Below, one piece after another: positions 1 through 57,101 of a DNA stretch of 64,000 nucleotides. This DNA comes from Chiloscyllium plagiosum (taxonomy: Eukaryota). The position numbers were made by a program, and so were the translations under genes. Each line of letters begins with the position of its first letter. Within the stretch, counting starts at the first letter, position 1. The stretch spans positions 17,747,145 to 17,811,144 of the forward strand of contig NC_057745.1 in assembly GCF_004010195.1 (NCBI RefSeq), written 5' to 3'. Below the pieces are notes generated by a model, which was given only the letters and a program-made list of their open reading frames with translations, was not told where the DNA came from and ran no database searches.

Positions 1-2016
1 AGTGAATCCTTAGAAGAGTATAAAGGCAGTAGCAGTGTACTTAAGAGGGAAATCAGGAGAACAAAAAGGGGACATGAGATAGCTTTGACAAAAAGGGTTA
101 AGGAGAGTCCAAAGGGTTTTTACAAATACATGAAAGGCAAAAGGGAGAGAATAGTACCCCTCAGAGATCAGCAAGGCGGCCTTTGTGTGGAGCTGCAGGA
201 GATGGGGGAGATACTAACCGAGTATTTTGCTTCAGTGTTTACTGTGGAGAAGGACATGAAGTATAGAATGAAAAATGTCCATATGACACAGGACAAAGTG
301 CTGGATGTTTTGAAACGGATAAAAGTGGATAAATCCCCAGGACCAGATCAGATGTACCTTAGAACTCTGTGGGAAGATAGGGAAGTGATTGCTGGGCTCC
401 TTGCTGAGATATTTGTATCATTGATAATCACATGTGAGGTTCCAAAAGACTGGAGGATGGCTAATGTGGTGCCACTGTTTAAGAAAGGTGGTAAGGACAA
501 GCCAGGGAACTGTAGACCGGTGAGCCTGACGTTGGTTGTGGGCAAGTTGTTGGAGGGAATCCTGAGAGATAGGATGTACATATATTTGGGATGACAAGGA
601 CTGATTAGGGATAGTCAACATAGCTTTGTGCGTAGGAAATCATGTCTCACAAATTTGATTGATTTTTTTGAAGAAGTAACAAAGAGGATTGATGAGGGCA
701 AAGTGGTAGACTTCAGTAAGGCATTTGACAAGGTTCCCCATGTGCGACTGGTTGGCAAGGTTAGATCTTATGGAATACAGTGAGAACTAGCCATTTGGAT
801 ATAGAACTGGCTCAAAGGTAGAAGTCAGTGGGTTGTGGTGGAGGGATGTTTTTCAGACTGGAGACCTGTGACCAGTGGAGTGTGAGATGCTGGAAAAACA
901 CAGCAGGCCAGGCAGCATCCGAGGAGCAGGAGATGCTTTGCTCCTGTTCCTCGGATGTTGCCTGGCCTGCTGTGTTTTTCCAGCATCACATTTTTCAACT
1001 CTGGTCTCCAGCATCTGCAGTCCTCACTTTCTCCTACCAGTGAAGTGTCACAAGGATAGGTGCTGGGTCCACTACATTTTGTCATTTATATAAGTGATAT
1101 GGATGTGTGTATAAGAGATATAGTTAGTAAGTTTGCAGATAACACCAAAATTAGAGGTGTAGTGGACAGCGAAGAAGGTTACTTCAGATTACAAAAGGAT
1201 CTTGATCAGATGGGCCAATGGGCTGAGGAGTGGCAGATGGAGTTTAATTTAGATAAATGCGAGGTGCTGCATTTTGGGAAAGCAAATCTTAGCAGGACTG
1301 AAACACTTAATGGTAAGGTCCTAGGGAGTGTTGCTGAACAAAGGGACCTTGGAGTGCAAGTTTATAGTTCCTTGAAAGTGGAGTCGCAGGTAGATAGGTT
1401 AGTAAAGAAGGCATTTGGTATGTATTGAGTATAGGAGTTGGGAGGTCAAGTTGCAGCTGTACAGGACATTGGTTAGGCCACTGTTGGAATATTGCGTGCA
1501 ATTCTGGTCTCCTTCCTATTGGAAGGATGTTGTGAAACTTGAAAGAGTTCAGAAAAGATTTACAAGGATGTTGCTAGGGTTGGAGGATTTGAGCTATAGG
1601 GAGAGGTTGAACAGGCTGGGGCTGTATTCCCTGGAGCGTCGGAGGTTGAGGGGTGACGTTATAGAGGTTTATAAAATCGTAAGGGGCATGGATAGGATAA
1701 ATAGACAAAGTCTTTTCCCTGGAATGGGGAGTCTAGAACTAGAGGGCAAAGGTTTAGGGTGACAGGGGAAAGATATAAAAGAGACCTAAGGGACAACTTT
1801 TTCACCCAGAGGGTGGTACGTGTATGGAATGAGCTGCCAGAGGAAGTGGTGGAGGCTTTTACAATTGCAACATTTAAAAGGCATCTGGATGGTTATATGA
1901 ATTGGAAGGGTTTGGAGGGATATGGGCTGGGTGCTGGCATGCGGAACGAGGATGGGATATCTGGTTGGCATGGATGAGTTGGACCGAAGGGTACATTTCT
2001 ATGGCTCTGACTCTAA
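1..2016 (+). mobile_element. CR1 LINE, decayed ORF2 RT plus 3' tail
   Basis: KSPGPD, WRMANVVPLFKKG, LGP..F, KFAD, LEYCVQFW, NFFTQRVVRVWNELP across frames, with stops; ATGGCTCT/GACTCT tail. Confidence 0.93.
884..1035. mobile_element. Short fold-back Penelope pseudo-LTR insert inside CR1
   Basis: TSD accagtgRagtgt at 871-883 and 1036-1048 splits the CR1 TSGVPQG motif; internal inverted repeat; ends ccagcatctgcagtcctcactttctcc like the other pLTR copies. Confidence 0.85.
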
Positions 2017-2814
2017 GTAGAAAATCAGCAATTGTACTTCATTGGCTTAAAGTGTGAAGGCTTGTGAAATGCATTATGTAAATGCAAGTCTTTTATTTGT
2101 GGGTATTGAATTACTCTGCCATTTTCCAGTCACTGGTCCACTGTGATCATGATGGCTGCCATTTTGAATTTATTTTGACTTCCCTTAATTTTAAGCCCTA
2201 CATCACATGCCAATCCCAAGCTTACGTTAAGTTCAGAAAAGGCGCACGGCTGGAACATTTTTTTTTCTTGGCTGTTGTACTATTCCTGTGCAAGTATGCA
2301 TTCTATTGCTAGAATCATATCTGAAGTTGGTGCAGGGACCCCTCCCCCAGGCAAATCACAATGTACCTTCTATCCCATCAACCCCACATCTCCCCTATGG
2401 TTTTCCAGCTTTTCCTTCCATTCTGTGAATGAAGGTCTCTGAGTCTCCCTGCTTAACTTTGCTGTGATGATCATCACCACCGTTTTTCTGCCTTAAAACT
2501 AAAGTTGGGTAAAAACAAAAGGTTGCATGGTGTCATACTCACATATTTAGAGGTCACCCTCATCTTGGCTTCTGATTCTTTCCAGTGGCTGGTGGTCCCG
2601 GTGTAGGGAGCCCCAAAATGCCCAGGATAGTAGCCCGGATGTGGTCTATCCAGGGCACAATTCTGGCCACTCCTACCAACAATAACTGCATCATATTACA
2701 CACATTCATACATAGGACCTGTTCTCTAACTCAAAACGGGATATGTCCAAGTCTTGCACCTTTTTGAATTATCCAGGAGCTTGGGGAGTCCGTGTTCCTC
2801 ATTGCTTCCTGCAT

Positions 2815-2970
2815 GGCAATGGTGTGGCCAATCAGAGTTGGATTGCAAACCAATCAACACCATTTCCTGTTTTGGTATAAATTGTGATCATTTGAATTTT
2901 TTGGTATTCTTGCATTTATTTTGATGAGCATGAGATTGAATATGTCAGCACCTTGTCAACAATATTCTGT
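2815..2970 (+). repeat. Old interspersed repeat (second copy inverted at ~4905-5050)
   Basis: aaccaatcaacac and tttggtattcttgca are shared with the reverse complement of 4941-5020. Confidence 0.55.
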
Positions 2971-3761: not shown

Positions 3762-4145
3762 GGGGTCAGCCATGGCTTAGTTAGTAGCAGACTCGCCTAC
3801 AAGTTATAAAGTTCCATTTGAAGTCCCACTTCAGTATGCGAGTACAAAAATCAAGGCTGATGCTCCAGGGAAGCACAGAGAGGAGATGAGATGTGAAATC
3901 ATCACTCCATCTGCCGACATAGAGTCTGTTGGAAAACTGGGGTGGGGGGGATGTTCTCCCTACTTATATCTATTGCTCAATCAAACAATAAATTGTCATT
4001 ATCACAGTGCTGCTCTGCACAAACATGGCTGATGTGCTTCCCGCATTACAATAGTAATGATATTTCAAATGTAATTATTTGACTATAAAGTAGGTTGAGT
4101 AGTACAGTAGTTATGAAAGTTGCTTTATCAATGCTAGTCTGCTTC
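3762..4145 (+). mobile_element. Degenerate DeuSINE-like (SacSINE1-type) tRNA SINE
   Basis: tRNA-like head tggcttagttagtagc; Deu-like core cattatcacagtgctgc...tgcacaaa.atggctg; L2-like tail tgaaag..gct.tat.aatgc.agtct; related tails at 6180-6347 and 44330-44560. Confidence 0.6.
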
Positions 4146-4543
4146 CTGGAAGAGAAGAATTGATCTTGAGCAGGAAAAAGGACTTTCTTTCTTCCCCCTT
4201 CCCTCATCCAAGGTGTTGCCATAACCTAAGGTGAACTAACTCATGAAGAACTAGGGTTACACCTGGGAATATTGTGTCTTTGTACCTTCATAGTTATCTG
4301 CGGTGCAACTGCACACTTAGCCCGACAATGGATTTCTTCAATAGATTCTAAACCTTTCCTTTTTTCTGGTATGAATTGGTATTTGCTCCACTGTCTTTTA
4401 CACCTCCTTTCAGCTCCTTCCTCACTGACATCAGTGTGGAAATCAAGCCTGATCACTAGTGTACATTGCTCCTGGTGGCCAGTATAGAATGGCTTAGATG
4501 ACCAACATCTGGCAGTTCCATTAGTTGGGGAAAGTTTTCATTT

Positions 4544-4870
4544 CATAGAATCCCTACAGTTTGGAAATAGGCCCTTCAGCCCAACAAGTCCACACTGACC
4601 TTCCAAAGAGTAACCCACCCAGACCCATTCCCCTACCCTATATTTACCCCTGACTAATGCACCTTATACTTTGGGCAATTTAGCATGGCCAAGTCACCTG
4701 ACCTGCACATATTTGGATTGTGGGAGGAAACTGGAGCACCCGGAGGAAACCCACATGGACACAGGGAGAACGTGCAAACTCCACACAGACAATCGCCTGA
4801 GGCTGGAATTGAACCCGGGTCCCTGGTGCAGTGAGGCAGCTGTGCTAACCATTGAGCCACCATGCTGCCC
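4544..4870 (-). mobile_element. HE1-type V-SINE
   Basis: Minus-strand A box TGGCTCAATGG and B box GGTTCAATTCC; V-domain gtgtggagtttgcacgttctccc; CR1-derived tail. Confidence 0.9.
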
Positions 4871-5149
4871 CAAAGTTATTAGATAGTGCGACCCTGAGTT
4901 TCGCTGAAAATGTTTCTTTTAACTTTTTTTTTACTTTCATCTGGACAATTTGCAAGAATACCAAATTAAAGAGAAAATGACACCTATGCTATGTAAAGGG
5001 ACAGTGTTGATTGGTTGACATGTGAACTTTGATGGTTAGAAGTGTTGCTATAGATAGGTACCAGTTAATGATGACTAACAGTTAACTGTCAAGCTTTGTT
5101 TAAATTTTAATCTAACAGGTCAAGGCATTGCTTTGAAAATGGCTATCAT

Positions 5150-5600
5150 CTGAAACAAAAACAGAAATTGCTGGAGAAACATAGCAGCTCTGGCAGCATT
5201 TTGGAAAGAAAGCAAAGTAAATATCTTAGGTCCAGTAATCCTTCTTTAGAACTGATTGTAGATAGGAAAAGGTGGTATATTTGCTGAAGACAGGGGGTGG
5301 AGGGGCAAGGAGTAAACAATAAGCCAAAATGGAACCCAGAGAGAGAAAACAGTAGTTGGACAAAGGGATGATAATGCTGAGCCAAGGAGAAACAAAAGCT
5401 GCAATAAGAGTCCATTAGTGCATGAAAATGGATTGGCTGTGAGCCAATGTAATTACAAGCCTGGGGTGCGGGAGTGGGTTAAGGACATGGAAGAAGGTGC
5501 TCAGGCTCAATTATTGAACTTGGTATTGATTGTGAAGGCTGCAGGGTCCCAGAGCGGAAAATCAGATGCTGTTCTTTGAGTTTACACTGACCCTCGCTGC
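5150..5600 (-). mobile_element. Penelope-like element 3' end with pseudo-LTR
   Basis: CKLKEQHLIFRSGTLQP C-terminal motif; degenerate hammerhead at ~5215-5255. Confidence 0.8.
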
Positions 5601-6170
5601 CATCTGTTTTCTTGCATTGAAACAGGTGCCGTGTGAGTAGATGTTTCCTCTGTCTGCAAAAAACAGGGTCCTGTATATTAGTATAGTTAGCTTCCAGAGT
5701 GTGCAAGTACAAGTGAACCCAACTGACAGTCCTGAACTGGTTGTCAGTGTAATGCTTTGCAAACCCAGGATTATCTGGCAAATATTGTCCAATTATGAAA
5801 TCACATCTGATGTTTCACAGATATTGTCCAACTATGAAATCAACATCTGATGTTGTGAGTTTTGCAAACGCTGGTTAGGTATGGTCAGTAAGTTGTTTGT
5901 TGTGAACAATTGAAGAATGTTGTTATTTGATAGGATATACCAATTTTGGGGGCATATGGCCTACATACATAGCATCACACAAGCACTGAAATTCATATAC
6001 CACATTCCTGATTAGTGTGATACACTGAACAATTTTTTGGCAGCATGCTGTTAGTGATGTTCCCACTAAATTGAAACAGAATAAAACGGCTTTAAACTTC
6101 TGCTGCACACTTTGAGATACCTTATCTTGCCAGGGTAATCAAAGATAGTTTTGGCAAAACTTATTCATCA
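5600..6170 (-). mobile_element. Second Penelope-like fragment, GIY-YIG endonuclease region
   Basis: RNVVYEFQCLCDAMYVGH (VVY...YVG motif); ~40-bp tandem duplication at 5781-5853. Confidence 0.75.
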
Positions 6171-6899
6171 GCTATGGTTACCTGCTCATGATTACATTGT
6201 TCTTAATGGTAGCTGCTGTGTGCAAATTAGATGCCTATGTTTCCTATATTGCAACAAAAACTATGCTTCAAAGAGTATTCAAGTGCTGTAGAGGACTTTG
6301 GTATGTCCTTAAGCTGGGAGAGGCCCTGTAAAAATGCAATTCTGTCTGGAGAACATGATGAAAAGGAAAAGCAGAAATCGCCAACCCAATGGGTCATTTA
6401 ATGAGGCAAGGCTATTGGGTGTGAAGGAAGATTAACGATGACCACATAACACCTCAAATTATACACCTTGTTAAAAATTCCAACAACAGAACTTCACAGA
6501 AGGAGCCCTATATTTCTTTCTCTTTCGAGATTAAAACTTAACCAAGTACTTCATACTAATATTAGCACAGTCTGATTTTCACATTGGTCATGGAATTAGA
6601 ATGTAGTTGTTTAGAGGAGCAGTCAACTTTGGAAAAAATAACATGAAGCCAATTTGTATTGAATTTTTTTCTGCTGATGAGTTTTGAGACTATTTATAAA
6701 AAGGATAAAAAAGGCGGTGTCCTCTAAATTTCAATGCTGTAATTTCAGAGTGTTCTGGCCTGCAGAATGGTTACATTGGAATATGTCTCAACCAGTATTC
6801 TTTCACTGGTATAGAAACAAGAGTTTATCTTACTAAATGTGTTTTTTAATATTGTTTGATTTCCATGGTGGCATGAATGCCTTTTTTGTCTAAGTGTTG

Positions 6900-7052
6900 G
6901 GATATGTTTTGATGTCAATTCCCACATGTTTGAGGTCACTGTGAAGTCCTCGCCTGAGGTGTGCAGATTCTCAGGTTAAACTCACCACCAGTTATCTCTC
7001 TCTTGAATGAGAGAACAGCCTGTGGTCCATGGTGACTGTAGTAATTTTCATT
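6900..7052 (+). mobile_element. Old tRNA-SINE body (same family as 14075-14286)
   Basis: cctgaggtgtg...caggttaaac..caccagtt matches the reverse complement of 14120-14165. Confidence 0.6.
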
Positions 7053-7126
7053 TTCTACAGGTGTTAGAGGCTCAATAATTCAGTTATGACTTTGAAGCTC
7101 TTCCTGGGTGTTGTACTGAAATTAAT

Positions 7127-7942
7127 GGATAGAATTTAATGTAAGCTCTTTTCTGCCAAATTGACAGCCAGCAGTCAGGACCTGGGATAGCAAGATACAT
7201 TTGGGATGAATAACTGGAGACTGTTCTATATGGGTTAAGGGCAGGGCAGGGGGCCTGGGTCAGGTTCAGTGCTGAGGCTTGTGACTTGCTCCACTGACAA
7301 AGTCATGTGTCGCCTCTTTTTCTGGAAAACCCATTGTATTAAATTCCAATCAGGCACCCCACAGGGCAGCAGTGGTGAATGTTCCCCAGGATCAAGAGGA
7401 TATGGGCGGGGGGGGAATTCCATCCACTGAGAGCATCTGGCTAACTAGAGACTGGCAGCTCATCATTGCTCAGCCAAACCACTGACCAGTGGTGGTTGAT
7501 GTTGGTAATGCAACCACCATGGTCAGGGTTGCTGAGGTCACAGATGAATGATGGTTGGAGACAGATTGTGGGGTGGACTTTGAGGAGATGGGGTATTGGC
7601 AGCAAGAGCCAGGGTTGCGTGTGTCCCTTACTGGCCCCAATTTCCTCAGTCCTTCTCAATGACAGGCTTCTCAATCAGGCACTGAGCAACCGCAAAAAGG
7701 TTTACTTCTTGGGTTTCCCACACAACAAGCCCTCTGCTTACTGTTGTGTAAATCCCAGCAGCACTGAGATGAGGTCCTCAAGTGGGCCTTAGTTACCACT
7801 TAATTGCTCCAATTAACAAAGAAGGTCTTCTTGCTACAGACTTAATTGAGGTAAAGGCAGGAAAATATTGCACCCCCCCCCCCACATGATCAAATGCTCC
7901 CATCACCAAATTCAGCAAGGGAGTGGGCATTAAATTCTGCCC
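7127..7942. mobile_element. Non-autonomous DNA transposon (PIF/Harbinger-like MITE)
   Basis: TIRs ggatagaatttaatg (7127) and cattaaattctgccc (7928-7942), 13/15 match; no ORF. Confidence 0.55.
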
Positions 7943-8105
7943 TCTGTTTTCCATAACCAGTCAGCATCATGAGGAGTCAGGGACATATAACATATAATTT
8001 GGATACTGCATTATAACTATTATTGACTCTTGAAGAGATTGGTTGTAGACTGTGTATAGTATCTGTGAGAACAGCGCAGATTGACAAGGACAGTGGTCTT
8101 TTTGG

Positions 8106-8480
8106 ATTCATTCAACTGATGTGGATGTTGTTGTCTGGGCCAGCATTTATTCCCCATCCCGAATTGTTCCTTGAGCTGCCTTTCTGAACCTCTGTGGTCC
8201 ATTTGGTGTGGATACACCAAAAATGTTTTTGGCGATGAAATTTCAGGATGCTCACCCAGCAAAACTGAAAGAATGCCGATATATTTCCATCAGGAGGGGT
8301 GAGTGGCTTGGTGGGGATCTTGCAGGTTCCCATGTATCTGCCTCCCTCCTTCAGGATGGTAGTGACTGTGGGGTTAGAAGGTGCTGTCTAAAGAGCCTTG
8401 GTAAATTTCTGCAGTGCATCTTTTACTTGGTGATGCTGCTATGAGCATAAGATGTGGAGAGAGTGAATGTTTGTGGATAT
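8106..8480 (-). mobile_element. 3' end of a second CR1/L2-superclade LINE family
   Basis: Same 3' sequence (gggccagcatttatt.cccatccc...ccttgag) as the copies at 35775, 54490 and 63245. Confidence 0.75.
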
Positions 8481-8884
8481 GGTGTTTTAAAATATTAAGG
8501 ATTGGATTGAAATGGGTGGATGAAAGTGGTTTTGACTTTTTTATTTATTATTGTGGTTTAAATGGTGCATTTGACCAATCAATAGACTCCTGTAGCTTTG
8601 GCATGTCATCTATTGTCAAGCAACTTCTAACTGATTGATTGCCAAGTAACCTCAACCACATCATTCTTAACCAAGACAGAACCAGCCTATCATCAGTTAT
8701 AAAGACTCAACTCAAAATGTTAACACTGTTTTTGTCTCCAATGATACAGCTAGACCAGCTGAGATTTTCTGGCAGTTTCTGTTTAGGTAATTAAAGGAAT
8801 GGAAACACTTTGAGGGATGAAGAGAACTCTGGTTTCTAAAGTTTTGCTGTTTTTGAATTACGCCCTTGCAATGTGAATATTTAC

Positions 8885-9133
8885 CTCCCACAACTGTGTC
8901 CCTGCCAAAACCAACGCACCACCACCTCGCTACCCTCACCAACCCCATGACCTCCAGTCCCTCACTACCACCTACCACTATCACCAGCACAACCTCACCC
9001 CACCATCCCTAGCCCCCAACCACCACCTCCACCAACTTCTCACCATCAACTACCGACACAATGCCCACCCCTACCCCCACTACCATCCCTAGCCTCCACA
9101 AATCCCTCCACCCTCACCAACACCACCAGCACA
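8885..9133. repeat. Degenerate (ACC)n low-complexity tract
   Basis: C/A-rich cac/acc triplets. Confidence 0.8.
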
Positions 9134-9719: not shown

Positions 9720-10043
<324 letters not shown>

Positions 10044-16415: not shown

Positions 16416-16545
16416 TTTCCTAAAGAAGGGCTTATGCCAGAAACGTCGATTCTCCTGCTCCTCGGATGCTGCCTGAACTGCTGTGTTTTTCCAGCACCAC
16501 ATTTTTCAACTCTGGTCTCCAGCATCTGCAGTCATCACTTTCTCC
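16416..16545 (+). mobile_element. Penelope pLTR fragment with hammerhead motif (variant A, G5 mutated)
   Basis: TSD ttacatga at 16406-16413 and 16546-16553; CTAAAGA-A-GGGC-ttat-GCCA-GAAACGTC. Confidence 0.82.
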
Positions 16546-16612
16546 TTACATGAGTAGGAAGGGTTTAGAGGGATATGAGCCAAATGCTGGCAGATAGAAC
16601 TGGATTGATTTA

Positions 16613-16707
16613 TCCACAACCACCTGATGAAGGAGCAGCGCTCCAAAAGCTAGTGCTTCCAAATAAAGCTGTTGGACTATAACCTGGTGTGTGTGATTTT
16701 TAACTTT
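16613..16707 (+). mobile_element. Penelope-type pLTR fragment with hammerhead motif (variant B, G12 mutated)
   Basis: cac-CTGATGA-A-GGAGC-agc-GCTCC-AAAAGCTA-gtg; same family as 47633-47998. Confidence 0.8.
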
Positions 16708-17545: not shown

Positions 17546-18769
17546 CTGTCGGTATTCAATGGAGAAGGCAAGGCAAGAATGCTGTGATCATTAGGGTAGG
17601 CTGAAAATGAGTGAGTGCTAAGAGAGCAAGCAAACAGCTCAGTGATGCAGCCTGGTCCAGTTCATGAGCTGGATGTGTCCCTGAGTCTAAACTGCAGCCC
17701 GAGGTGCAGCTTTGAGGTACAGAGTAAGTAGATTGGAGATGTACCATGAGGGGTCTTAGAACCTTGCACATGCAGATGTAAGATCCGCAGTCAATAAACC
17801 ATTAACAAGCAATAATTCCCCTTAATGGGCAACTTATAATTGCAGGTGGCAATATAACTTTGATGGCCAGAACTCAGTTAAAAGATGCAGTGAGTTGTTC
17901 TCACATTGAAATGGACCTTGTTGGACTTCTTGTATGCTTCTGCCAAATTTTTTGCCATAGCCCACATCATTCCGGCCCTTGAAGATTCCACCTGAAACTT
18001 TTATTTAATCCTTTTGCAAATCAGAGTTTTGTTGATGCTCCCTTTGCCTCCCCTTTCATACTTCAATAAAAAGAAAGATTGCTGCAGCATTCATTAAATG
18101 CTTTTGAGAACATCACATCAGCTTCTTTCTTCAACGATAACAGCATGCAGTAATCTTATGAATAGTCATTGACCTGAAGTATTGGAATAGATTTTCAAAG
18201 TGGCGTGGACACCTGGATGAATTCTAGGCCCTGACCCAGCACCAAGGTACATCACTCTTCCAAGACAATTTTCAGATGCAAATGGTATAATTTGGGCTTG
18301 GTGCCAAATTACTGGGAGTGAGCAACTCCAGCGGCAGCAATATTGGAGGCTGCTACTGCATCACCAATTGGAGGCAAAAACCCAGGAGGTCAGACATGGT
18401 GGACAGTAGCCATGGCAGATGTGTTAGAAGCAGTGCTTGTGCTGGCACTAGTTGGTCCCTATACATTTGAATAATCCTCAACTCTGAAGAGACTTACTTG
18501 GTCCCCATGGGGGAACCCAACAGCTGTGCTTGAGCAGACTGTTCTGACCTAGCCAACAAAAACATTGAGAATTACAGAGGCTGCTCAACACGCTCAAGAG
18601 CAGTTAATTGATGACGATCACAAAAGATCAAAGAAGCCTCAAAAAATACCCGCAATCCCTTTAAAAATTGAAAAATGTCTTGGAAGCTTTGAAATCTCAA
18701 GGAGAAACTCTGAGAACATATTCCACCCCTATTCCCTAGTCCTTTCATAATCCGCCTATTATCTGGCTT

Positions 18770-18865
18770 TTCTCTTCACTGATGCTATCTGGTCTGCCGA
18801 GTATTTCTAGCATTTTCTAGTTTTATTTCAGATTTCCAGTGTCTGCAGTATTTCAGTTTAGTTTT
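18770..18865 (+). mobile_element. Old Penelope pLTR 3' fragment
   Basis: ctgatgct...ctgccgagtatttctagcatttt...cagatttccagtgtctgcagtattt; similar remnant at 8695-8785. Confidence 0.6.
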
Positions 18866-20791: not shown

Positions 20792-20965
20792 GGGAGAAAG
20801 TGAGGACTGCAGATGCTGGAGATCAGAATCGAGAGTGTGGTGCTGGAAAAGCACAGCAAAGCAGGAGAATCGATGTTTCGGGCATAAGCCCTTCATTAGA
20901 AACCAGGGCTTATGCCCGAAACATCAATTCTCCTGGTCCTCGGATGCTGCCTGACCTGTTGTGCT
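20792..20965. mobile_element. Fold-back Penelope pLTR insert
   Basis: TSD tttactgYactggca at 20777-20791 and 20966-20980; two opposed, decayed hammerhead stem-II/GAAAC motifs. Confidence 0.85.
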
Positions 20966-21184
20966 TTTACTGCACTGGCATATTGTATTGGTGTCTATCT
21001 CTCTTCCCTGCCCTAATCTTGGTGTGTCAAATGGCATGTGGCCATGGTACACAAACTCGACATTTCATTTCTCTTTGGAGCCAGCCTGCACAGTCTGTCT
21101 GACAGCAGTCCCAGGCTTCACAATGGTCATCAAGAATAATCAGCGATTGTTTCTGCAGTAGAACAACTGATGGATTCTGTTGCA

Positions 21185-21282
21185 AGCACAGAGAATGTTG
21201 GAAAACTCAGCAGATCTGGCAGCATCCATGGAGACAGAAACAGAGTTAACATTTTGAGACTGGTACGACTCTTCTTCAGAAT
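21185..21282 (-). mobile_element. Penelope pLTR fragment (hammerhead variant C, decayed)
   Basis: Reverse complement reads aatt-CTGAAGA-A-GAGTC...CTC-AAAATGTT-aact. Confidence 0.7.
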
Positions 21283-21376
21283 TGGATTCTGTTGTTCAAA
21301 ACAGACCGAGACCAGCACCGAGACAGCAGTTGTACAAACACAAAGATTGATCTTTCTTCCAATTTTTTCTCCTCAG

Positions 21377-23370: not shown

Positions 23371-23490
23371 GACATGCTGCAGTCACTTAAAAAATGGGAG
23401 AAAGTGAGGACTGCAGATGCTGGAGATCAGAGCTGAAAAATATGTTGCTGGAAAAGCGCAACAGGTCAAGCAGCATCCAAGAAGCAGGAG

Positions 23491-23526
23491 AATCGACGTT
23501 TCGGGTATAAGCCCTTCTTCAGGAAT
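23491..23526 (-). ncRNA. Minimal hammerhead motif (core intact)
   Basis: Reverse complement attc-CTGAAGA-A-GGGC-ttat-ACCC-GAA-ACGT-C-gatt. Confidence 0.6.
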
Positions 23527-23541
23527 GAGGAAGGTGTCCTC

Positions 23542-23577
23542 ATTCCTGAAGAAGGGCTTAGGCTCGAAACGTCGATT
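23542..23577 (+). ncRNA. Minimal type I hammerhead ribozyme motif (core intact, sense to MYO1E)
   Basis: attc-CTGAAGA-A-GGGC-ttag-GCTC-GAA-ACGT-C-gatt; predicted cut after C23573; helix I weak. Confidence 0.65.
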
Positions 23578-25097
23578 CTCCTGCTCCTTGGATGCTGCCT
23601 GACCTGCTGCGCTTTTCCAGCAACACATTTTTCATTTTAAAAATGGTTGCGACTGTACAGTCTCTGCTTTTGACCATCAGCATTGAAGCTATATCAATTC
23701 TAGGTGGTGTTTGTATTTTCTGTGCATTTTCTTACCAATGCTGTGATAGTAGGGCTAATCCCACATGTAATAATGCAACACAAATCAACTTTGAGGTAAT
23801 CAAAATAAAATGAAAATGATACAACTCCAATCCTGTCAGGATGTCTACCTAACTTTGTTTACATCAGTACCTAATAATTATCCAATTCGAATGCTGAGTC
23901 TTATTCAAATGAAAGTTCCCAGTTGTTAGCTAAGCAATGTCTTCTGAGCAGATCTTTTCTATGGCTGAGAGAAGTTGTATTCATATAAATAAATAACCTC
24001 CTGGCCCTTGCTGAAGGTTTGAAGGTATATGCTATACAAACACGGGTAGGTGAGGAGGGGATAACTGCTTCTGGACTTGAACCTGATGAGCAAGAGAAGT
24101 CACCAGGCTTGTGCTTACCAGCTGGATTTAGTTGCTTTCCTCCTGAGTAGCCCCTTCTTCCCACAAGCCTGGGTGTGTGGAATCACCTCAACTATTGCAT
24201 CAACTAATGCAAGTGAATAGCACAGCTCAAAAACTCGAAACTGGGACATTTCATGTCTGTACAACAGCGGTTTACTCATTTATATTAAGCAATCGGAAGG
24301 GTTGAAACAAGTACTGCCTCAAATTACACATTAGGTTTGTTTTTTTCTCTGTTTTGCTTTTGAGGGAGCATATAAAATCATCTTTCAGCAACATCTGCCG
24401 AACTCACTTCTTAACAAGTATTGTAGTAAAAAAGAAATTTTACCAGTTTTTTTAGACTCTTTTTAGAAGTGACTCTCAGTAGCCTTTTGCAGAAAAGAGC
24501 AGACTGTAGTGTCATTCTCATTATCATCTTGTGCTGTCTTCCCTGAACTGGAATCTGATCCATGTCTGAGGTGGGGATGATTGGTTCCTCTCTGATGAAC
24601 ATTGGTGAACCAGTTGGGTTTATGCAACTGTTGTCAACATTCATCTTAGCTTCTCTGGTATTAGCCCACAAATTACTGATCTATTCAATTCAGGTTTCAC
24701 AACTAGTAGGAACGGTTATGAAGCTGGATTAACAACTCGGAATTTAATGTGAAACTCTGATTCCACACTTGTGGTTGACCACTTGGTGCCTTTAGGGCAA
24801 CAGGGATGGGTTAAGAAATGTTGCCTCACTTGCATCGCCCACATCCACAGGACCAAGTAAAAAATTAAACAAAAGGTACAGGATAAGCGAGCACAAAGAG
24901 CCTGCAGTTTAGCAATTGTATTCCATCACAAGTTGAGAGGCTATGCTAGGAATGAAATAAAAAGGCATTGAGCAGAGATACTCTTGCATTCAGCAGCCTT
25001 TGTGTTATAACCTGCATCTTGTTCCATATTGGTTTCAGCTAGCTCTCCAATACCTAGTTAAAATAAACTGTTTATTGTACAAAACAATGATAGCACT

Positions 25098-27659: not shown

Positions 27660-28085
27660 GAAAAAAAATCGGGGTCTGATCCCTCATTGAAATAATCTTT
27701 TTTGTCCTGAAAGGAGGTTTCTGTTTGCCTTTACACGCCACAACTGTTACCCAGCACAGACTGGGCAACAGGAATTTTACATAAATCAGTCTAAGACCAG
27801 ATGCATCTGAGCTTTTTGCTTGGTCTCAAGGTTGTCTTTCATTGGAAAGCTCCTGATCATATCAAATTAGGTCGAGGGAAGGAACCACTTTTCTTTAATT
27901 AGCTGCCTTAAAGTAAATTGCAGGAAGGAAAGGAAAGCTTTGTACAAATTAATAAAGGATGAAGAAGGTACAAAGTCTGATCCAGCTTGAGTTTGAGACG
28001 AGAAAACTGCAAATGCTCGAATCCAAAGTAGATTAGCAGGAGGCTGGAAGAACACAGCAAGCCAGGTAGCATCAGGAGGTGGAGA

Positions 28086-28120
28086 AGTCGACATTTCAGG
28101 TGTAACCCTTCTTCAGGACT
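28086..28120 (-). ncRNA. Minimal hammerhead motif with 4-bp helix I
   Basis: Reverse complement agtc-CTGAAGA-A-GGG-ttaca-CCT-GAA-ATGT-C-gact (ACGT palindrome decayed to ATGT). Confidence 0.6.
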
Positions 28121-28781
28121 GGGGTGGGTGTGGGGAATTGCAGATAAAGAGGGTGGTGGAGGCAGGGTGGTGAAGTGGGGATAGGTGAAGACAGGCAGAG
28201 GGTACGACCTGGTTAGTCAGTGGAACTGTAAGTAAACATTATTTCAACAGCATCTCAAACATCAAAAACTGTATGCACAACAAACTTTTATCTACCCACC
28301 TCCATAACCAGCGCTCCTCGAACATTCCAGAAGATTCCCCCGGCCTCTGGAACTGCTCGGACGCCATTAGCCATGCAGCTGGTGCACCTGCCACCCCCAC
28401 GATGATTGATGATGTCAATTCCGCCCCCACCATGGCCACTCCCACAACAATTTCCGCCCCTCACAATTCCTCATGCATCACACGTGACATCACTTCCGCC
28501 CCTCACATCATTGCTGATGTCACACGCTCAGTGACTTCCGCCACCCCTACTGACGTATCTGCCACCACTTCCGCCCCCACCAATGCCACTCACCTGCATT
28601 CTGCTGACACGCCCCCCACAGATCCCACTGTCACCATTTCCAAGTTGGAAAGAAACTGGTTATTTCCCTGGAAGTTGTGTTATGCAATGTTGCATTCAGG
28701 GAGAGCAGAGGATTTGATTGAACTAACCCTGGGTGAGGTCTGGGGGCTGTATTCACATTGAATCTGGGTCTGCAGCACTGA

Positions 28782-30430
28782 CTCCAACCTCTCCCTATCT
28801 GAGTGTTCTGCACTCCTCTCCCTCCACTCCAACCCCAACCTCACCATTAAACCAGCTGACAAGAGAGTGCTGTGATATATTGGTGCACTGCCCTCTACCT
28901 CGCCGAAGGCACATGCCAACTCGCTGGCATCACCTCATACCGCCTGCTAAATTATGACCAGACCATCATCGCTGAGACCATGCACGATCTCGTCGTCTCC
29001 CATTACTACCCGTTTCTATGTTCTCTCCAAAGTTCATAAACCTGACTGCTCCAGCCGACTGATCATTACTGTCTGCACCTGCCCCAATGAACCCATCTCC
29101 TTTTATTTCCATTCTGTCCTGTCCCCGTTGGTCCAGGAAGGCTCCACCTACATTCAGGACATCATCTACACCATTCACCTTCTCCACAGCTTTCAGTTCA
29201 CTGGCCCCCACAATCTCATCTTCATCATGGACATTCAGTCTCTTGACATCTGTGTCCTCCATGAGGAGGACCTCAAGGCCCTCCATTGCTTCCTCACTCA
29301 CAGACCCACCCAGTCCCCCTCATCTGACACCTTCCTGAGAGAATTCGTCCTTGCCCTTAACAACATTTCTTTTCAATCCTCCTACTCACTTGCAAACCAG
29401 AGGGGTGGCTATGGACACCTGCATGGGTCGAATCGATTCCTACCTCTTTGTAGGTCACATAGAACAGTCCCTCTTCTGTAGTTATCCCGGCACTATCCCC
29501 CACCTTTTCCTCTGCTGCATTGATGACTGCATCAGCGCTGCTTCGTGCTCCCACAAGCAGCTTGAATAGTTCATTAATTACTCCAACACCTTCCACCCTG
29601 TCCTCAACTTCACCTGGACCATCTCCGACACCTCGCTCCTCTTCCAGGATCTCTCTGTCTCCATCTCCAGCAAGCGACTTACCATGGACATGTATTAGAA
29701 ACCCACCATCTCCCACATCTGCTTCGATTCCACATCGTCCCAAATACCCTGCTGCAAAAATGCAATCCCATACTTCAAATTCCTCCAGCATATCTGCTCC
29801 CAGGATGAGCAATTCCACTCCAGGACATACCAGGTGTTCTCCTCCTTCAAGGACTGCAACTTCCCCACCAGCATGATCATCAATACCCTCAGCCACATCT
29901 CCTACATTTCCTGCAGCTTTGTCCTCAAACAGAATCCTTCCCAGATACACAAGGATAGATTGCCCCTGGTCCACATATTCCACCCCACTCATCTCCAAAT
30001 ACAGTGCATCATCCTCTGCCACTTCTACGATCTGCAATCAGATCCCACCAACAAGTTGATATTCCCCTCCCCGCCCCACTGCATTCTGCAGGATCCAATC
30101 AATCTGTGACACCCTCGTAAGGTCCATAATCCCCCCAACCCCTTGTCCACACTTGGAACTTTCCCCTCCATCTGCACAAAGTGTAAAACCTCCTACTCAC
30201 CACCATCCAAAGGCCCTGAGAATCATTCCAAATGCAGCAAAGATTCATGTGCATTTCCTCTAAATTGCCTCTGTTGCTCCTGATGTTGTCTCAACTCCTT
30301 CGGGGAGACTGAGCGCAAATTCCGGAACCAGTTCAGGGAATATTTATCATCCATACACTCCAATTGACCACACTTTCCGGTGGCCGTCCATTCCAACACC
30401 CCCCGCCCACCCCCCCACTCCTCCATCTCC
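28782..30430 (+). pseudogene. Decayed Penelope RT + GIY-YIG ORF
   Basis: LTIKPADK, RFYVLSKVHKPD, FIMDIQSL, QTRGVAM, CIDDC (from YIDD), FGETERKF; many frameshifts. Confidence 0.88.
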
Positions 30431-31402
30431 ACTAAGCCATCAGCAAATACTAAACTCTCCCGTTTCAACCTGGAGCTGGGCTGGGACTGAACACTGGAGT
30501 AAACCCTCACACCCTCCCTCTAGATCCCGCACCTAGCCCCCTACCACCCCATCCCTCTTTCAGCTGTCTTCCTTTTCCGTCCAACAACCCCATCTTCACC
30601 CCCTGCCCCCACACTCCGCTGTGCGGGATCCCACAGGAAGCAAAATGTGAAAATGGCCAATCGTTGATGGAGTGGGTTAATATCATCCTGAACGTTGGCC
30701 AAAAGTGAGTGGGGGTGGCGTGGGAGGGTGGTGGGGTGGGGGGTGTCAGATCCTGCATTTCCTACCTCTTTGCAATGCTGAGGATCCTCCTCAGTCCCAG
30801 AGCCTACTCCAAAACCCCACCCCCTCACCAAACCTCACCCCCCAAACCCCACAACCCCAGAGACAGTAATAAGATCCCATTTTCTGGATTAGTGGTGCTG
30901 GAAGAGCACAGCAGTTCAGGCAGCATCCGAGAGCAGTAAAATCGACGTTTCGGGCAAAAGCCCTTGATTAGGAATAAAGGCAGAGAGCCTGAAGCGTGGA
31001 GAGACAAGCTAAAGGAGGGTGGGGGTGGGGAGAAAGTAGCATAGAGTACAATAGGTGAGTGGGGGAGGCATCTGCAGTCATTGTTTTTACCTAGTTGATC
31101 TTAACCCTACTGCGAATCCTCTTGCAAGGATGCCTGCCTTGAAGATGTTTTCCTCTTCTCTCTACAAGAATCTCAGGGAGTCCCTCTCCCACTGCAACTC
31201 CCAGGTTATTTCCTCTGTCCTGAAGCTCTTCAACCATGCCTACCTGCCTATCTTCTTTTCCACCTATCCACTCCACCCTCCCCCCATCCCCGACCTATCA
31301 CCTTCATCCCCTCCCTCACTCACCTATTGTACTCCATGCTACTTTCTCCCCACTCCCACCCTCCTCTAGCTTATCTCTCCACGCTTCAGGTTCTCTGTCT
31401 TT

Positions 31403-31438
31403 ATTCCTGATGAAGGGCTTTTGCCCAAAACGTCCATT
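31403..31438 (+). ncRNA. Minimal hammerhead motif in Penelope 3' pLTR (G12 mutated)
   Basis: attc-CTGATGA-A-GGGC-tttt-GCCC-AAAACGTC; the inverted sister copy at ~30940-30975 retains GAAACGTC. Confidence 0.6.
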
Positions 31439-31625
31439 TTACTGCTCCTCGGATGCTGCCTGAACTGCTGTGCTCTTCCAGCACCACTAATCCAGAATCT
31501 GGTTTCCAGCATCTGCAGTCATGGTTTTTACCTGGTTAGTCAGTGACCAGCTTGGGTTTGCCAATTGTAAAAGGAAAAGAGGGTTTCAATGCTATTTCAG
31601 ACACTTCTGTTTTCTCTTGTCTAAC

Positions 31626-35774: not shown

Positions 35775-37340
35775 TTCAGTCATGGGATATGAGTGTCGCT
35801 GGCTGACCAGCATTTATTGCCTGTCCCTAACTGCCCTTGAAAGGTAGTGGTGAGCTGCTTTCTTGAACTGTTACAGTCCATATCTGGTAGATAGACCCAT
35901 AATGACCTTAGTCAGATGTCACATGACACCAGGTTACAATCCAACAGCTTTATTTAAAATCACAAGCTTTCAGAGTGCTGCTCCTTCATCAGGTGAAGTG
36001 ATGTCCTTAGAGAAGGAGTTCCAGGATTTTGACCCCGCGACAGTGAAGGAATTGTGATATATTTCTCAGTAAGGATGGTGGTGGGTTGGAGGGGACCTTG
36101 CAAGTGGTAGTATTTCCATGTATCTGCTGCCCTTGCCCTTCTAGATGGAAGTAGCCATGAGTTTGGAAGGGATTTTTTAAAGATCTTTGGTGATCTTCAG
36201 CAGTGCATCTTGCAGATGGTACACACTTCTTCTACTGCTGAGTGTCAGTGGTGATTGGACTTTGTGGATGTAGTGCCAATCAAGTTGTTTTGTCCTGGAT
36301 GGTGTCAGTTTCTTGAGCTGCACTCGTCCTGAGCAATATTCCATCACATGCCTGACTTGTGCTTTGTAGAGGGTGGACGGGCTTTGGGAAATCGGGAATT
36401 AAGTTACTCAACACAGTATTCCTAGCCTCCTACCTGTCCTTCTAGCCACTGTACTTATATGGCTAGTCCAGGTGAGTTTCTGGTCAATGGTAATCCCCAG
36501 GATGTTGATAATGGGGAATTTAGTGAATGTCAAGGGGTGGTGGTTAGATTGTTTCATATTGGAGATGGCCATTGCCTGGCATTTGCGTTGCATGAATGTT
36601 ATTTGCTAGTTTCTCAGCCCAAGATTGAATGTTGTCTCGGTCTTGATGCATTTGAACCTGAAATGCTTCAGTATCTGAGGAGTCGCAAATGGTATTGAAC
36701 ATTGTGCAATCATCAGCGAACATCCCCTCTTCTGAACTTAGGTTGGAGGGAAGGTCATGAATGAAGCAACTGAAGATGGTTGGTCTGAGGACAATATCCC
36801 AAGAACTCCTGTAGGGATGTGCTGGAGCTGAGATGACTGACCTCCAACTACCACAACCATCTTTCTCTGTGCGAGGTACAACCTCAAACTGCAAACAGAG
36901 AGTTTGCCCTTGATTTCCATTGATTCCAGTTTTACTAGGGTTCCTTGATGTCAAGGGCTGTCACTCTCACCTCTAGAATTCAGCTCTTTTGTCCATGTTT
37001 AAACCAAGGCTGCAGAGAGATCAGGAGCTGTGTGACCCTGGCGGAACCCAAACTGAACATCACTGAGCAGGTTATTGACGCTGCTGATGACACCTTCCAT
37101 TACTTTACTGATTAAGAGTAGACTGACAGGGCAGTAATTGGCCAGGTTGAATTTGTCTTGCTTTTGTATACATGGCATATTTAGGCAATATTCCACATTG
37201 TCAGGTGGATGCCAGTATTATAGTTTGGCTATGGTTGTGTCACGTTCTGGAACACAAGTCCTCAGTGCTAATGCAGCAGAGTTGTCAAGGCCAATACCCT
37301 TTGCAGTATTCAGTGCCTCCAACTGTTTCTTGATATTACA
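35775..37340 (-). mobile_element. Second CR1/L2-superclade LINE family, RT to 3' end (continues 38125-38185)
   Basis: ANYCPVSLL, QFGFRQGH, VVVGGQSS, PTIFSCFIHDLP, MFADDCTMF. Confidence 0.85.
35912..36000 (-). mobile_element. Penelope-type pLTR fragment with intact-core hammerhead (variant B)
   Basis: TSD atgWccttag at 35902-35911 and 36001-36010; reverse complement tcac-CTGATGA-A-GGAGC-agc-ACTCT-GAA-AGCT-T-gtga. Confidence 0.78.
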
Positions 37341-47283: not shown

Positions 47284-47463
47284 AGGATTGGCAGACAATC
47301 AGGAGGCTGGAAGAACACAGCAAGCCAGGCAACATCAGGTGGTGGAGAAGTCGACGTTTCGGGTGGCCTTCTCCAGCTCCTGGTGCTGCCTGGCTTGCTG
47401 TGTTCTTCCAGCCTCCTGCCTGTCTACCTTGGATTCCAGCATCTGCAGTTATTTTTTGTCTCT
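47284..47463. mobile_element. Fold-back Penelope pLTR insert
   Basis: caggaggctggaagaacacagcaagccaggca / tgcctggcttgctgtgttcttccagcctcctg inverted arms; same subfamily as 27996-28120. Confidence 0.82.
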
Positions 47464-47576
47464 AAAGGCACAACCATTGTCTTGTGCCACCCACTGGCAG
47501 GGATGGTAGATACCACAAAGCGCGGGATGGTATTTTAGGCAAACACTTTGGCAGCATACTAATGTCATTTTAGGCT

Positions 47577-47869
47577 GAATTTATCTTGTCAATAGTCTAG
47601 CTTGTTTTTTTAAAAAAAACTATCTAAATCATAGTTAAAAATCACACAACACCAGGTTATAGTCCAACAGGTTTATTTGGAAGCACTAGCTTTCAAAGCG
47701 CTGCTCCTTCATCAGGTGGTTGAGAATTTATCTTGTCAATAGTCTAGTTTGTTTTTTTAAAAAAACTATCTAAATCATAGTTAAAAATCACACAACACCA
47801 GATTATAGTCCAACAGGTTTATTTGGAAGCACTAGCTTTCAAAGCGCTGCTCCTTCATCAGGTGGTTGA
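47577..47869. repeat. ~146-bp tandem duplication (flank plus hammerhead-bearing pLTR)
   Basis: Units 47577-47723 and 47724-47869 are nearly identical. Confidence 0.93.
47684..47718 (-). ncRNA. Minimal hammerhead motif (duplicated at ~47830-47864)
   Basis: Reverse complement cac-CTGATGA-A-GGAGC-agc-GCTTT-GAA-AGCT-A-gtg. Confidence 0.65.
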
Positions 47870-47872
47870 TGA

Positions 47873-47907
47873 AGCCTGATGAAGGAGCATCACTCCGAAA
47901 GCTCGTG
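47873..47907 (+). ncRNA. Minimal hammerhead motif (core intact, sense to MYO1E)
   Basis: CTGATGA(47876)-A-GGAG-catca-CTCC-GAA-AGCT-C-gtg; predicted cut after C47904. Confidence 0.62.
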
Positions 47908-48240
47908 CTTCCAAATAAACCTGTTGGACAATAACCTAGTGTTGTGTGATTTTTAACTTTATCCACCCCAGTCCAACATCAGCTCCTCCACATCCTGGCT
48001 AAACCATGTCATTGTAAATGAAAGCACAGTAAAATGTCTCTGTGTAGAGGATATTGTAAGCCTTATCAATTAAGGCTTCAGAATAAAACAGATATTTGCC
48101 TTCTTTTTAATCATTGATGAATTTTTGTAAATCCATAAATTAAGACTTGTGTTTGCAAAGGAGCCAAGACTTCCCTATACATAAGATGAGCAAAATTCCT
48201 TTATTGAGCAAATAAATAACTCTGATTATTTATACCACAG

Positions 48241-52235: not shown

Positions 52236-52373
<138 letters not shown>

Positions 52374-54489: not shown

Positions 54490-56375
54490 ATTTATTCACT
54501 CGTAGGATGTAGAGATCACTGACTGGGTAACAATTATTGCCTGTCCCTAGTAATGCTTGGGAAGGTAATGGTGAGCTACCTTCTCAAACCACTGCAGTAG
54601 GTTGACCCACAATCCCCAGAGGGAAGGAATTCTAGGATTTTAATCCAATGACAGTGAAGGAATGGCTATGTATTTCTAAGCCAGGATGTTGAGTTGCTTG
54701 CTGGTGATAGTGTTCACATGTATCTCCTGCCCCATCCTTCTGGATGGAACTGGTCATAGCTTGGAAGGTGCTATGTAAGGATATTTAGTGAATTTATGCA
54801 ATGCATTTTGCAGATCGTACAAACTTGTGCTCCTTTGCATCAGTGACGGAGAGAGTGGGTGGTGGTGGAGAGAGTGTGTATTTGTAGATGTGAAGCCACT
54901 TTAAGGGGGTTGCTTTGGCCTAGAGCTGCTTGAGAATTGTTGGAGCTGCACCCATCCAAAAGGTGGGGAATATTCCATCACACGCCTGACTTGTGTTTTG
55001 TAGATGGTGGGCAGGCTTTGGGAAGTTATTCACCACAGTATTCCTAGGCTTTGATCTGCTTTCACAGCCACTGTGTTTACACAGCGAGTCCAGTTGAGTT
55101 TCTGGTAGCCCCCATGATGTTGATAGTCGGGGATTCAGTGATGGTAACACCATTGAATGTCAAGGTGTTTGATTGTCTCTAATTGAAGATGGTCATTGCC
55201 CGGCATTTGTGCGGCACAAGTATACTTGCCACTTGTCAGCCTAAGCCTGGATATTGTTCAAATCTTGTTTGACCACATCTGCTTCAGTGCCTGAGGAGTC
55301 ACAAATCGTGCTGAACATTGTGCAATCATCAGCGAACATCGCTACTTCTGACCTTATGATGGAGCAAAGATCATTGATGAAGCAGCTGAAGATTGTCGGG
55401 CCTAGGACGCTACCCTGAGCAACTCCTGCAGAGATGTCTTGGAGCTGAGATGATTGACCTCCAACAACCACAACCGTCTTCCTATGTGCCAGGCATAACT
55501 CCAACCAATGGATAATTTACCCCCGATATATATTGATTCCAGTTTTGCTCGGGCTTCTTTATGCCACATTAGGCCAAATGCGGCCATAATGTCAAGGGCA
55601 ATCATTCTCACCTCACCCCTGGAATTCAGCTCTTTTGTCCATGTTTGAACCCAAGGCTGTAATGAAGTCAGGAGCTGATTGGCCCTCGTGGAACCAAAAA
55701 TTGGCATCACTGAGCAAGTTATTGCTGAGTAGGTGCTGCTTGACAGCACTTTTGATGACATCTTCCATCACTGTACTGATGATTGGCTGTAGAGTGGTGG
55801 AGCAGTAATTGGCTGGGTTGAATTTATCCTGCTTTTTGTGTACAGGACAAACAAGGGCTATTGCCAGTGATGTAACTGTAATGGAACAGCTTGGGTAGAG
55901 ATGCATCAAGTTCTGTTTGGCATGCATGTAGTCCTATTTGGTGGTTTCATCAGGTTGACACTCATTTTTAGTATGCTTTCCTGCACTCTCCTTTGAACCA
56001 TGGTTGAGTGGGTAATCCGCTGGCCATGAGGTTGCAGTTCATGGTGGCCCACAGTGCCTCATAGATGCCCAGTCTTGAGTTGCTAGATCCTTTCAAAGTC
56101 TGTCCTATTTTTCACGGTGTTGGTGCCATTCTGCATGGTGGAGGGTGTTCTCAATGTGAAGGGAAAACTTCATGTCTACAAGGACTGTGCAATGGTCACT
56201 TTTACTGATACTGTCATGGACAGGTGCATCTGCAGCTGACAGATTAAATAAAGTCAAGTATATTTTTCCCTCTTGTTAGTTCCCTCAGTGCCTGATGCAG
56301 ACCCGGGCTAGCAGTGATGTCTTTAGGACCTGACCAGCTCCATCAGTAGTACTGCTACTGAATCACTCTTGGTGG
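54490..56375 (-). mobile_element. Second CR1/L2-superclade LINE family fragment
   Basis: PVHKKQDKFNPANYC, ALDIMAAF, AGVAQGSVLGPTIFSCFINDL, MFADDCTMF. Confidence 0.88.
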
Positions 56376-56980
56376 TAAATGATAAATGTGTTGAAGCATT
56401 TCTGATTTATTATTTTCTTCTTGGACTACAGATTTAATCTTTCAAAGATAAATTACAAGGATTATAAACAGAGTGTCTTATGAATGACATTTGCCTATAT
56501 ATGTATTAACAGCAGGTAAGCAAGGGAATCGTAGATACTGTATGTATGAATTTACAATGTCATGTGTAATATCTTTCTCTAATCAACAAAGATCAATTAT
56601 TTAATCTGAATCTTTAGCATACGACATGATATATTAAATATATATTTTCTTTCTAATTACTACTTACCCTAGGCAGAAATTCTTACTCGAACAGTCAATA
56701 AAGTGGTAGTAATTATGGGCTTTAATATTTTCAATCTTTCCCTTTGGGTAGTTAAAATGGACAAACTCTTTTATGGAGATGATCATTTGTTATGCAAGCT
56801 GTTGTTAATAGTTTCATAGATTTCTTGATAATCTTAGTGTTGGTTTGATTTTTAGGAAGACAAGGTATTCTTTGAGAAGGGTCAGTTAACTAAGTTTGCT
56901 GATAGTTTGTGTTTTAGAATGATGGTAACAGCATGAAGTTTGACTCCTCTTTAGGTTGAGCCAGTCTTGAAGCTTAGCTC

Positions 56981-57101
56981 AAAGAGAGAGAAAATGCTGG
57001 AAAATCTCAGCAGGTCTGGCAGCATCTGTAAGGAGAGAAAAGAGCTGACGTTTTGAGTCTAACTGACCCTTTGTCAAAGCATCCGCAGTAATTTGCTTTT
57101 A
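56981..57101 (-). mobile_element. Penelope pLTR insert with U3-A8 hammerhead variant
   Basis: Perfect 14-bp TSD ttgaagcttagctc at 56967-56980 and 57102-57115; short inverted 3' piece 57078-57101. Confidence 0.85.

Follow-up and report, generated by a model that had tools for sequence, protein, structure and literature searches.

According to Cervera and De la Pena (2014, PMC4209133), the minimal hammerhead ribozymes of Penelope-like elements (PLEs) are mostly dispersed as single elements, “probably related to truncated PLEs”, and also occur as opposite-strand pairs lying 100-700 bp apart; PLE stubs tipped by a hammerhead are therefore an architecture already published (PMC4209133, PMC8557442, PMC11167929). 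The subject of this work is a 64,000-nt stretch of the 3.56-Gb genome of Chiloscyllium plagiosum (contig NC_057745.1, positions 17,747,145 to 17,811,144; hereafter the window), in which such motifs recur on short inserts. These inserts are very probably dead-on-arrival 3' ends of endonuclease-bearing PLEs, copied with a proposed internal priming at two sites and then decaying neutrally. The hammerhead stubs are abundant and mostly an ordinary case of the published class, their sole unusual trait being a family-specific pile-up of 5' ends.

In PAc, the Poseidon element of Anolis carolinensis, Frangieh et al. (2024, PMC11167929) reported two internal reverse transcription start sites that define the tail, one of them 111-118 nt past stem II. 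Both target strands were nicked and extended, uncleaved RNA was the main template, and no RNA-seq reads ended at the cut (PMC11167929). Transcription of PLEs starts within the pseudo-long terminal repeat (pLTR; PMC6765202), and a rotifer pLTR has TATA- and initiator-like motifs (PMC3846280). A CX2-5CxxC linker between the reverse transcriptase (RT) and the endonuclease is given for Neptune and is shared by Nematis (PMC8557442). Non-LTR retrozymes (LTR, long terminal repeat), on the other hand, are defined by tandem repetition, a complete hammerhead being present in two or more consecutive units (bioRxiv 10.64898/2026.07.22.740005).

The present motifs, numbered here relative to C3 (the first base of CUGANGA), resemble the metazoan PLE hammerheads of PMC4209133 in their type I core, the single extra base after A9, the G10.1-C11.1 pair and the palindromic 15-16 region, as well as in forming several consensus families per genome with compensatory changes, dispersed singles and opposite-strand pairs. 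They differ from the Schistosoma motif, with its stem II of 7-8 bp, in a stem II of 4-5 bp in families A, B and C, and their copy number lies about two orders of magnitude above the 4,000-9,000 of coelacanth and Xenopus (PMC4209133). Head-to-head arms, a tail of 30-40 bp on one arm, target site duplications (TSDs) of about 8-15 bp and heavy 5' truncation are shared with canonical endonuclease-bearing PLEs; unlike in those accounts (PMC8557442, PMC3846280), the inserts here mostly comprise the last 90-240 bp, and the 5' ends of families A, B and C cluster at the upstream edge of the hammerhead.

All 14 motifs named in a first-pass annotation of the window were recovered near where it had placed them, the plus-strand coordinates as given and the minus-strand numbers as the left end of the motif. 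The catalytic layout (CUGANGA, GAAA and UH) that it had taken to be shared is complete in seven of the 14 and substituted in the other seven (Table 1), many of the substitutions being due to neutral CpG decay. A strict minimal-hammerhead descriptor, run over 464 kb that included the window, returned 29 motifs, five of them in the window, as against 0, 0, 0, 0, 1, 0, 0, 0, 0 and 0 in ten dinucleotide shuffles and 0 in the reversed sequence; the dispersed ribozyme motifs are real. An Rfam search of the window to E=5 produced 17 matches, none of them a hammerhead, and the palindromic inserts matched microRNA (miRNA) hairpin models only. The density of roughly one per 5 kb was also upheld, with 16 events counted in 64 kb; the B motifs at 47715 and 47861 belong one to each unit of a local tandem duplication of 146 bp (47577-47869) and hence count as one event.

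The three variants of the annotation (A, B and C) were confirmed, except that most A copies have a helix I of AUUC/GAUU with an internal U-U mismatch. Pairing is indeed kept between families despite sequence change. In an alignment of 11 related natural representatives from A, B, C and three further families (E, F and G), 78.8% of 99 cells were paired, whereas sliding the partners left 23-41% paired; double changes numbered 21, and 0 of 500 shuffles reached the observed level. The rows are few and related, and in the 3' half the two B rows are shifted by one column, which causes B pairs to be scored largely as broken; the figures are therefore descriptive and carry no claim of significance. 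Judged by eye, helix I closes with C-G in A and B, with U-A in C and with A-U in E, F and G; the palindrome reads ACGU or AGCU. The extra base between positions 9 and 10.1 is A in A, B and C and U or C in E, F and G, the G10.1-C11.1 pair and the palindromic 15-16 region being present. The cleavage base of variant B is A, A, A, U and C in the window, as claimed, although “never G” fails in one decayed B copy elsewhere. An extra A after A9 is a tolerated natural variant, as in the CChMVd viroid. Some canonical hammerheads contain a similar unpaired base (PMC4209133).

The proposal that these are minimal type I hammerheads of PLE pLTRs is borne out by the core descriptor, the pairing and long copies linked to open reading frames (ORFs). 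Families A and B are the 3' ends (pLTR plus tail) of endonuclease-bearing PLEs with a Neptune-type linker, their hammerhead sitting in the pLTR, past the end of the GIY-YIG/RT ORF and, in A, shortly before the start of the next ORF. Upstream, long A copies reach the end of an ORF that has a CNRKKCKTC linker and GIY-YIG-type motifs. A long B copy contains RT, thumb, a CHGRGCKRC linker and endonuclease motifs, followed by about 500 untranslated nt with CA repeats. Both linkers fit CX4CX2C, in likeness to the CX2-5CxxC of Neptune (PMC8557442), and the Neptune-type assignment, made on the linker motif, is putative. The A and B protein pieces align with each other (E=8e-16), and in a protein-cluster atlas both rank GIY-YIG clusters at or near the top, 13-56% of the members of those clusters carrying PF01541. 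The A2 hammerhead and tail run on into the ORF start in loci L074 and L081. Several points count against the PLE origin: the GIY-YIG Pfam match of the A piece is weak (E=0.052), Pfam returned no RT or GIY-YIG match for six other pieces nor for the four PLE pieces of the window itself, and a full-length intact element was not recovered, the ORF start and ORF end lying in separate sampled loci of 3 kb, often with runs of N.

The likely ORF start in A lies about 170 nt after C3 and not, as in PAc, at stem II, PAc also differing from A and B in their Neptune-type linker (PMC11167929). At L074:1381-2280, no stop interrupts the family A reading frame between the hammerhead and the ORF, the tail included, and the encoded N-terminal stretch is hydrophobic; a translation start in the hammerhead is not claimed, as the loop II ATG of A1 is absent from A2, A4 and A5. 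Family C shares the downstream portion of the A end and appears from its sequence to be related to A and older. Families E, F and G, with a longer stem II, were found outside the window (L047:4401, L050:5032, L091:2947 and L095:4757). One family F 30-mer is exact at 4,217 places. The family F ORF passes through the hammerhead core with its stop codon inside stem II/loop II (L091:2667-2960, L147:117-380), cleavage falling, if it occurs, just past the stop; we take its C-terminus to be Poseidon-like.

Insert ends were mapped in 764 kb, made up of 264 kb surrounding the window plus fifty 10-kb pieces placed at round coordinates. Family A is represented there by 155 arms in 122 events, of which 33 are inverted (head-to-head), most pairing one tailed with one tail-less arm, and arm 5' ends were set by all-against-all extension and manual review. 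Among the 110 arms of at least 55 bits, two tandem arms having been reset to -5, 51 ends fall in +5..-16 over 1240 nt at risk versus 12 in -17..-200 over 3960 nt, a rate of 4.1 versus 0.3 ends per 100 nt (nominal p 2e-21). The pile-up is seen in both solo and inverted arms, and of the A arms long enough to reach the core, about 60% end at its upstream edge. In family B, ends at -7..-20 account for 11 of 20 loci and ends at +8..-12 for 18 of 30 sampled arms (read from 44 rows), and conservation among 47 aligned C-like copies starts at about -5; family E has too few copies for an end test. Clustering of 5' ends at PLE hammerheads was not found in the literature, consulted as main texts, mostly open, with Fig. 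S2 of PMC11167929 and Figs S2-S4 of PMC4209133 being places where it may be displayed.

Family A inserts have their 3' end at either of two sites, about +80..97 or about +120..125, which lie roughly 35-40 nt from each other, and families B and F show the same two-ended pattern; the two classes match the two internal start sites of PAc (PMC11167929). It is proposed by extension from PAc (PMC11167929) that the PLE protein would nick both target strands, reverse transcription starting internally at two sites on uncleaved RNA, and that priming on both strands would yield the inverted pairs. Reverse transcription would start in the 5' pLTR of a normal transcript and run off the transcript 5' end, with transcription beginning at or near the first base of helix I, some 30 nt behind a conserved AT-rich motif; longer copies would derive from read-through RNA or from the 3' pLTR. 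Run-off at the transcript start is the tentatively favoured cause of the pile-up, falling a little short of probable. Held more tentatively again is the specific version in which transcription of Neptune-type PLEs starts at the first base of helix I and reverse transcription from near +85/+122 gives a cDNA of the ‘strong-stop’ kind that is integrated directly.

Set beside the usual promoter consensus, long A arms from divergent subfamilies carry T[TA]AT[CT] at -34..-36 (27 of 34) together with TCATTC or TTATTC, which resembles an initiator and places A at -4; long B copies have TATAAAT at about -40 and TCCACA with A at -8. Several points weigh against a transcript start at this point. The AT-rich motif of family A departs from the canonical TATA box, and the bases that look like an initiator are part of helix I as well, which gives their conservation a second cause. 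The peak window was chosen after the data had been seen, six arms were moved to the “long” class by eye, 45 of the 155 arms were left out as low-scoring, and the arms of one inverted insert are not independent. For family F (TATAAA at -53) a pile-up at -15..-25 had been predicted beforehand and was seen in 0 of the 47 arms among the matches listed. RNA reads from four runs on an A1 copy (L014:980-1640) gave no start or end peak and none ending at the cut, in a poly(A) single-cell library unsuited to the purpose, one run yielding no reads and another being covered to about 2%; loose read ends at -4/-3 of this copy, indistinguishable from subfamilies that diverge upstream, were not counted. The same library, equally unsuited to circular RNA, contained one minor back-joint, from 1632 to 1505, in 4 reads. 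A splice acceptor at the hammerhead edge, as described for D. virilis Penelope (PMC4209133, PMC2377424), was rejected for A1, A2 and A4, which have no AG there.

Alternatively, the pile-up could mark a pause or template-switch hot spot of the Neptune-type RT, met at the hammerhead or at a bound protein on a long RNA, which is doubtful but still a serious possibility. Such a pause would fit the way in which the A ends ramp up across the motif, from 0.37 per 100 nt (+24..17) through 1.18 (+16..6) to 4.11 (+5..-16), the use of the motif's own short palindromes by many inversion junctions, and the lack of an RNA 5' end at the peak in the reads above. It fits less well with the position of the peak on the far (5') side of the structure, after both helices have been copied, and with the fall to 0.09 per 100 nt just upstream. 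Family F speaks against it as well: it has an equivalent hammerhead, and among its 47 arms in the matches listed only 2 end within 0..-35 and 1 in 0..-16, with 10 reaching the 250-nt limit. The lack of a pile-up in F thus weighs against a general stall at any hammerhead, making the effect family-specific.

A further reading takes the 5' ends to be made by hammerhead cleavage in vivo, or the stubs to be active ribozymes kept by the host; it is very improbable. The cut in family A is predicted between +27 and +28, and a small excess of ends does occur around it: 6 of the 108 arms at risk end at +25..+32, the insert at 886-1035 of the window included, or 0.72 per 100 nt, the flanking bins standing at 0.12 and 0.37. 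That only 6 of 108 end there implies that most templates were uncleaved, as for PAc. Most stubs retain sequence upstream of the cut, and in the poly(A) single-cell reads from the A1 copy none ended at it. In family F, 1 of 8 arms in the 764-kb sample starts downstream of the cleavage site.

As for activity, 45 of the 68 A arms spanning the core keep all core bases. In the same 68 arms, however, the CpG at C11.1-G12 has become CA 12 times (lethal) and TG 8 times (tolerated), as compared with 10/11 and 8/8 at control CpGs; it decays like other CpGs, and nothing points to selection once a copy has inserted. The inverted inserts form long hairpins on folding (-177 and -101 kcal/mol), with their motifs on opposite strands, which makes a cis dimer impossible, and the duplex formed by the 4-nt palindrome is worth only -1.7 to -2.5 kcal/mol. 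The term “system” in the annotation was accordingly too strong for genomic copies that decay neutrally and whose head-to-head hairpins bury the motif; the conservation of pairing between families reflects selection in the active source elements and not in the stubs.

Short ends do insert without the ORF, as had been suggested, and of the two origins offered for them the truncated Penelope insertion is supported: each subfamily has long copies reaching the GIY-YIG/RT ORF, and short and long arms interleave. In a tree of 71 A arms (41 short, 30 long; 81 columns, many open forks), 21 label changes were counted versus 23.2 on shuffling, 96 of 500 shuffles being as low, and the short-only clade expected of a family resembling a short interspersed nuclear element (SINE) was not seen. 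The other origin, a discrete SINE-like or retrozyme-like non-autonomous family made from its own short masters or circles, is improbable and largely refuted. It draws some support from abundance, as 57 well-scoring A events in 478,511 bases of the round-coordinate pieces extrapolate to about 420,000 of fairly fixed length and one 67-base family B stretch is exact at 151 places, and also from the occurrence of head-to-tail junctions. The type I hammerhead, non-coding short form, PLE pLTR link and chondrichthyan presence are likewise shared with non-LTR retrozymes, whereas the inserts here are solo or head-to-head and their tandem junctions rare and varied (bioRxiv 10.64898/2026.07.22.740005). 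Tandem units of the retrozyme type, each with a complete hammerhead and a fixed junction, were not encountered: 50 head-to-tail unit junctions were matched genome-wide, all told varied, against several hundred thousand events, and inversion junctions also differ from copy to copy. The window is without multi-unit arrays save for the one local duplication, and the stubs lack the part past the reverse transcription start into which PAc insertion RNA must extend (PMC11167929). The stubs represent individual insertions, truncated or inverted head-to-head, and do not make up a retrozyme family. Truncation points had been expected to be either random or those of discrete short families; the ends in A, B and C are non-random and clustered, yet form no separate family, which amounts to a third outcome.

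The statement that the inserts mostly have TSDs of 8-15 bp was overstated. TSDs are present, but in the window only 6 of 17 stretches scored at least 7.5, plus the insert at 20793 by eye. In the 764-kb sample, a TSD could be called for 20 of 31 inverted and for 10 of 28 short solo A events, with lengths of 11-21, versus 1 of 310 and 2 of 252 in the respective mismatched controls; the 18 of 28 short solo stubs that are without a TSD tell against the PLE-end origin. At L032:2721-3118, four A arms are chained head-to-tail and head-to-head at one site, with tail ends abutting position -5. At L080:1367-1490, a 33-nt piece ending at the first reverse transcription start site stands in four head-to-tail repeats before the ORF start, as if reverse transcription had restarted repeatedly.

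Table 1. Hammerhead inserts and PLE pieces in the window (window coordinates)
Feature	Position	Strand	Description
Family A head-to-head insert	886..1035		Both arms stop at ~+30/+32, near the cleavage site; no hammerhead core; TSD ~13-15 bp
Family C stub	5158..5256	-	Heavily decayed hammerhead (G5A, GAA lost), C3 at 5249
Family C stub	8697..8800	+	Decayed; absent from the first-pass annotation
Family A1 solo stub	16416..16546	+	-4 to tail end; core broken (G5A; G10.1-C11.1 lost), C3 at 16420; ~10-bp TSD
Family B solo stub	16613..16706	+	-11 to +82; core broken (G12A), C3 at 16624; TSD looked for, none found
Family C-like remnant	18746..18860	+	Without recognisable core
Family A head-to-head insert	20793..20975		Minus arm with broken core (G5A), C3 at 20899; plus arm from +7; ~15-bp TSD by eye
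Family C stub	21185..21285	-	Core broken (G12A), C3 at 21279; 12-bp TSD
Family A4 head-to-head insert	23397..23634		Two complete cores, C3 at 23522(-) and 23546(+); tailed arm on minus; folds into one long hairpin
Family A3 end + ~90 nt upstream body	27998..28207	-	Complete core, helix I AGUC/GACU, C3 at 28116
Family A2 N-terminal ORF region piece	28224..28640	+	92% to L074 over 384 nt
Decayed PLE RT-thumb-endonuclease body	28783..30245	+	DNA 67-78% to family A loci; RT piece 52% protein identity to L019
Inverted family A2 arm	30882..31068	-	-97 to ~+89; core broken (G5A, G8C), C3 at 30971
Family A2 tail end + ORF start	31068..31241	+	97% to L074/L075
Family A2 3' end	31242..31531	+	Upstream body with TTATCT at -36, hammerhead with broken core (G12A; C3 at 31407), tail
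Family B-type stub	35919..35998	-	Complete core, cleavage base U, C3 at 35992
Family A3 head-to-head insert	47290..47465		Broken core; absent from the first-pass annotation
Family B stub	47633..47722	-	-7 to +82; complete core, C3 at 47715; first unit of the 47577-47869 duplication
Family B head-to-head insert	47779..47995		Minus arm with complete core, C3 at 47861; tailed plus arm with complete core, C3 at 47876, helix I 5' strand lost at junction
Family C stub	56985..57085	-	Without first core box; 14-bp TSD

Exons of a myosin-head gene (PF00063) lie on the plus strand at 9720-10046 and 59177-59554, and the inserts between them, found on both strands, are presumably intronic. In the palindrome at 886-1035, both arm ends lie at most about 4 nt from the predicted cut. 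The duplicated B stub (47577-47869) is the only same-strand hammerhead pair of the window and its only candidate for a cis dimer, on the minus strand and antisense to the myosin gene; free folding of the pair gave no cis dimer. A 16-bp direct repeat (28208-28223 and 31529-31544) flanks a 3.3-kb composite of young A2 pieces (92-97%) and a far older RT-endonuclease body (67-78%), which may be a single insertion carrying older DNA or a set of nested events. Many RT fragments of the window, and the repeat that hosts the A1 stub at 16416..16546, are assumed to be CR1-like. A 33-bp tandem duplication of 2.1 copies occupies 26545-26612.

For repeat annotation, the practical consequence is that palindromic inserts of this type can pass for miRNA hairpins or miniature DNA transposons. 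The wider question touched upon is the role of the PLE hammerhead and the point at which PLE RNA begins, for which family F provides an internal negative control for the pile-up within the same genome. If transcription does start at helix I, this would account for the wealth of solo minimal hammerheads in metazoan genomes, and the several hundred thousand stubs would constitute a fossil map of the 5' end of the element RNA. The ribozyme would then sit at the capped end of the mRNA and be mostly uncleaved when copied, and the stubs that start at +25..+32, a minority, would provide the first genomic trace of in vivo cleavage.

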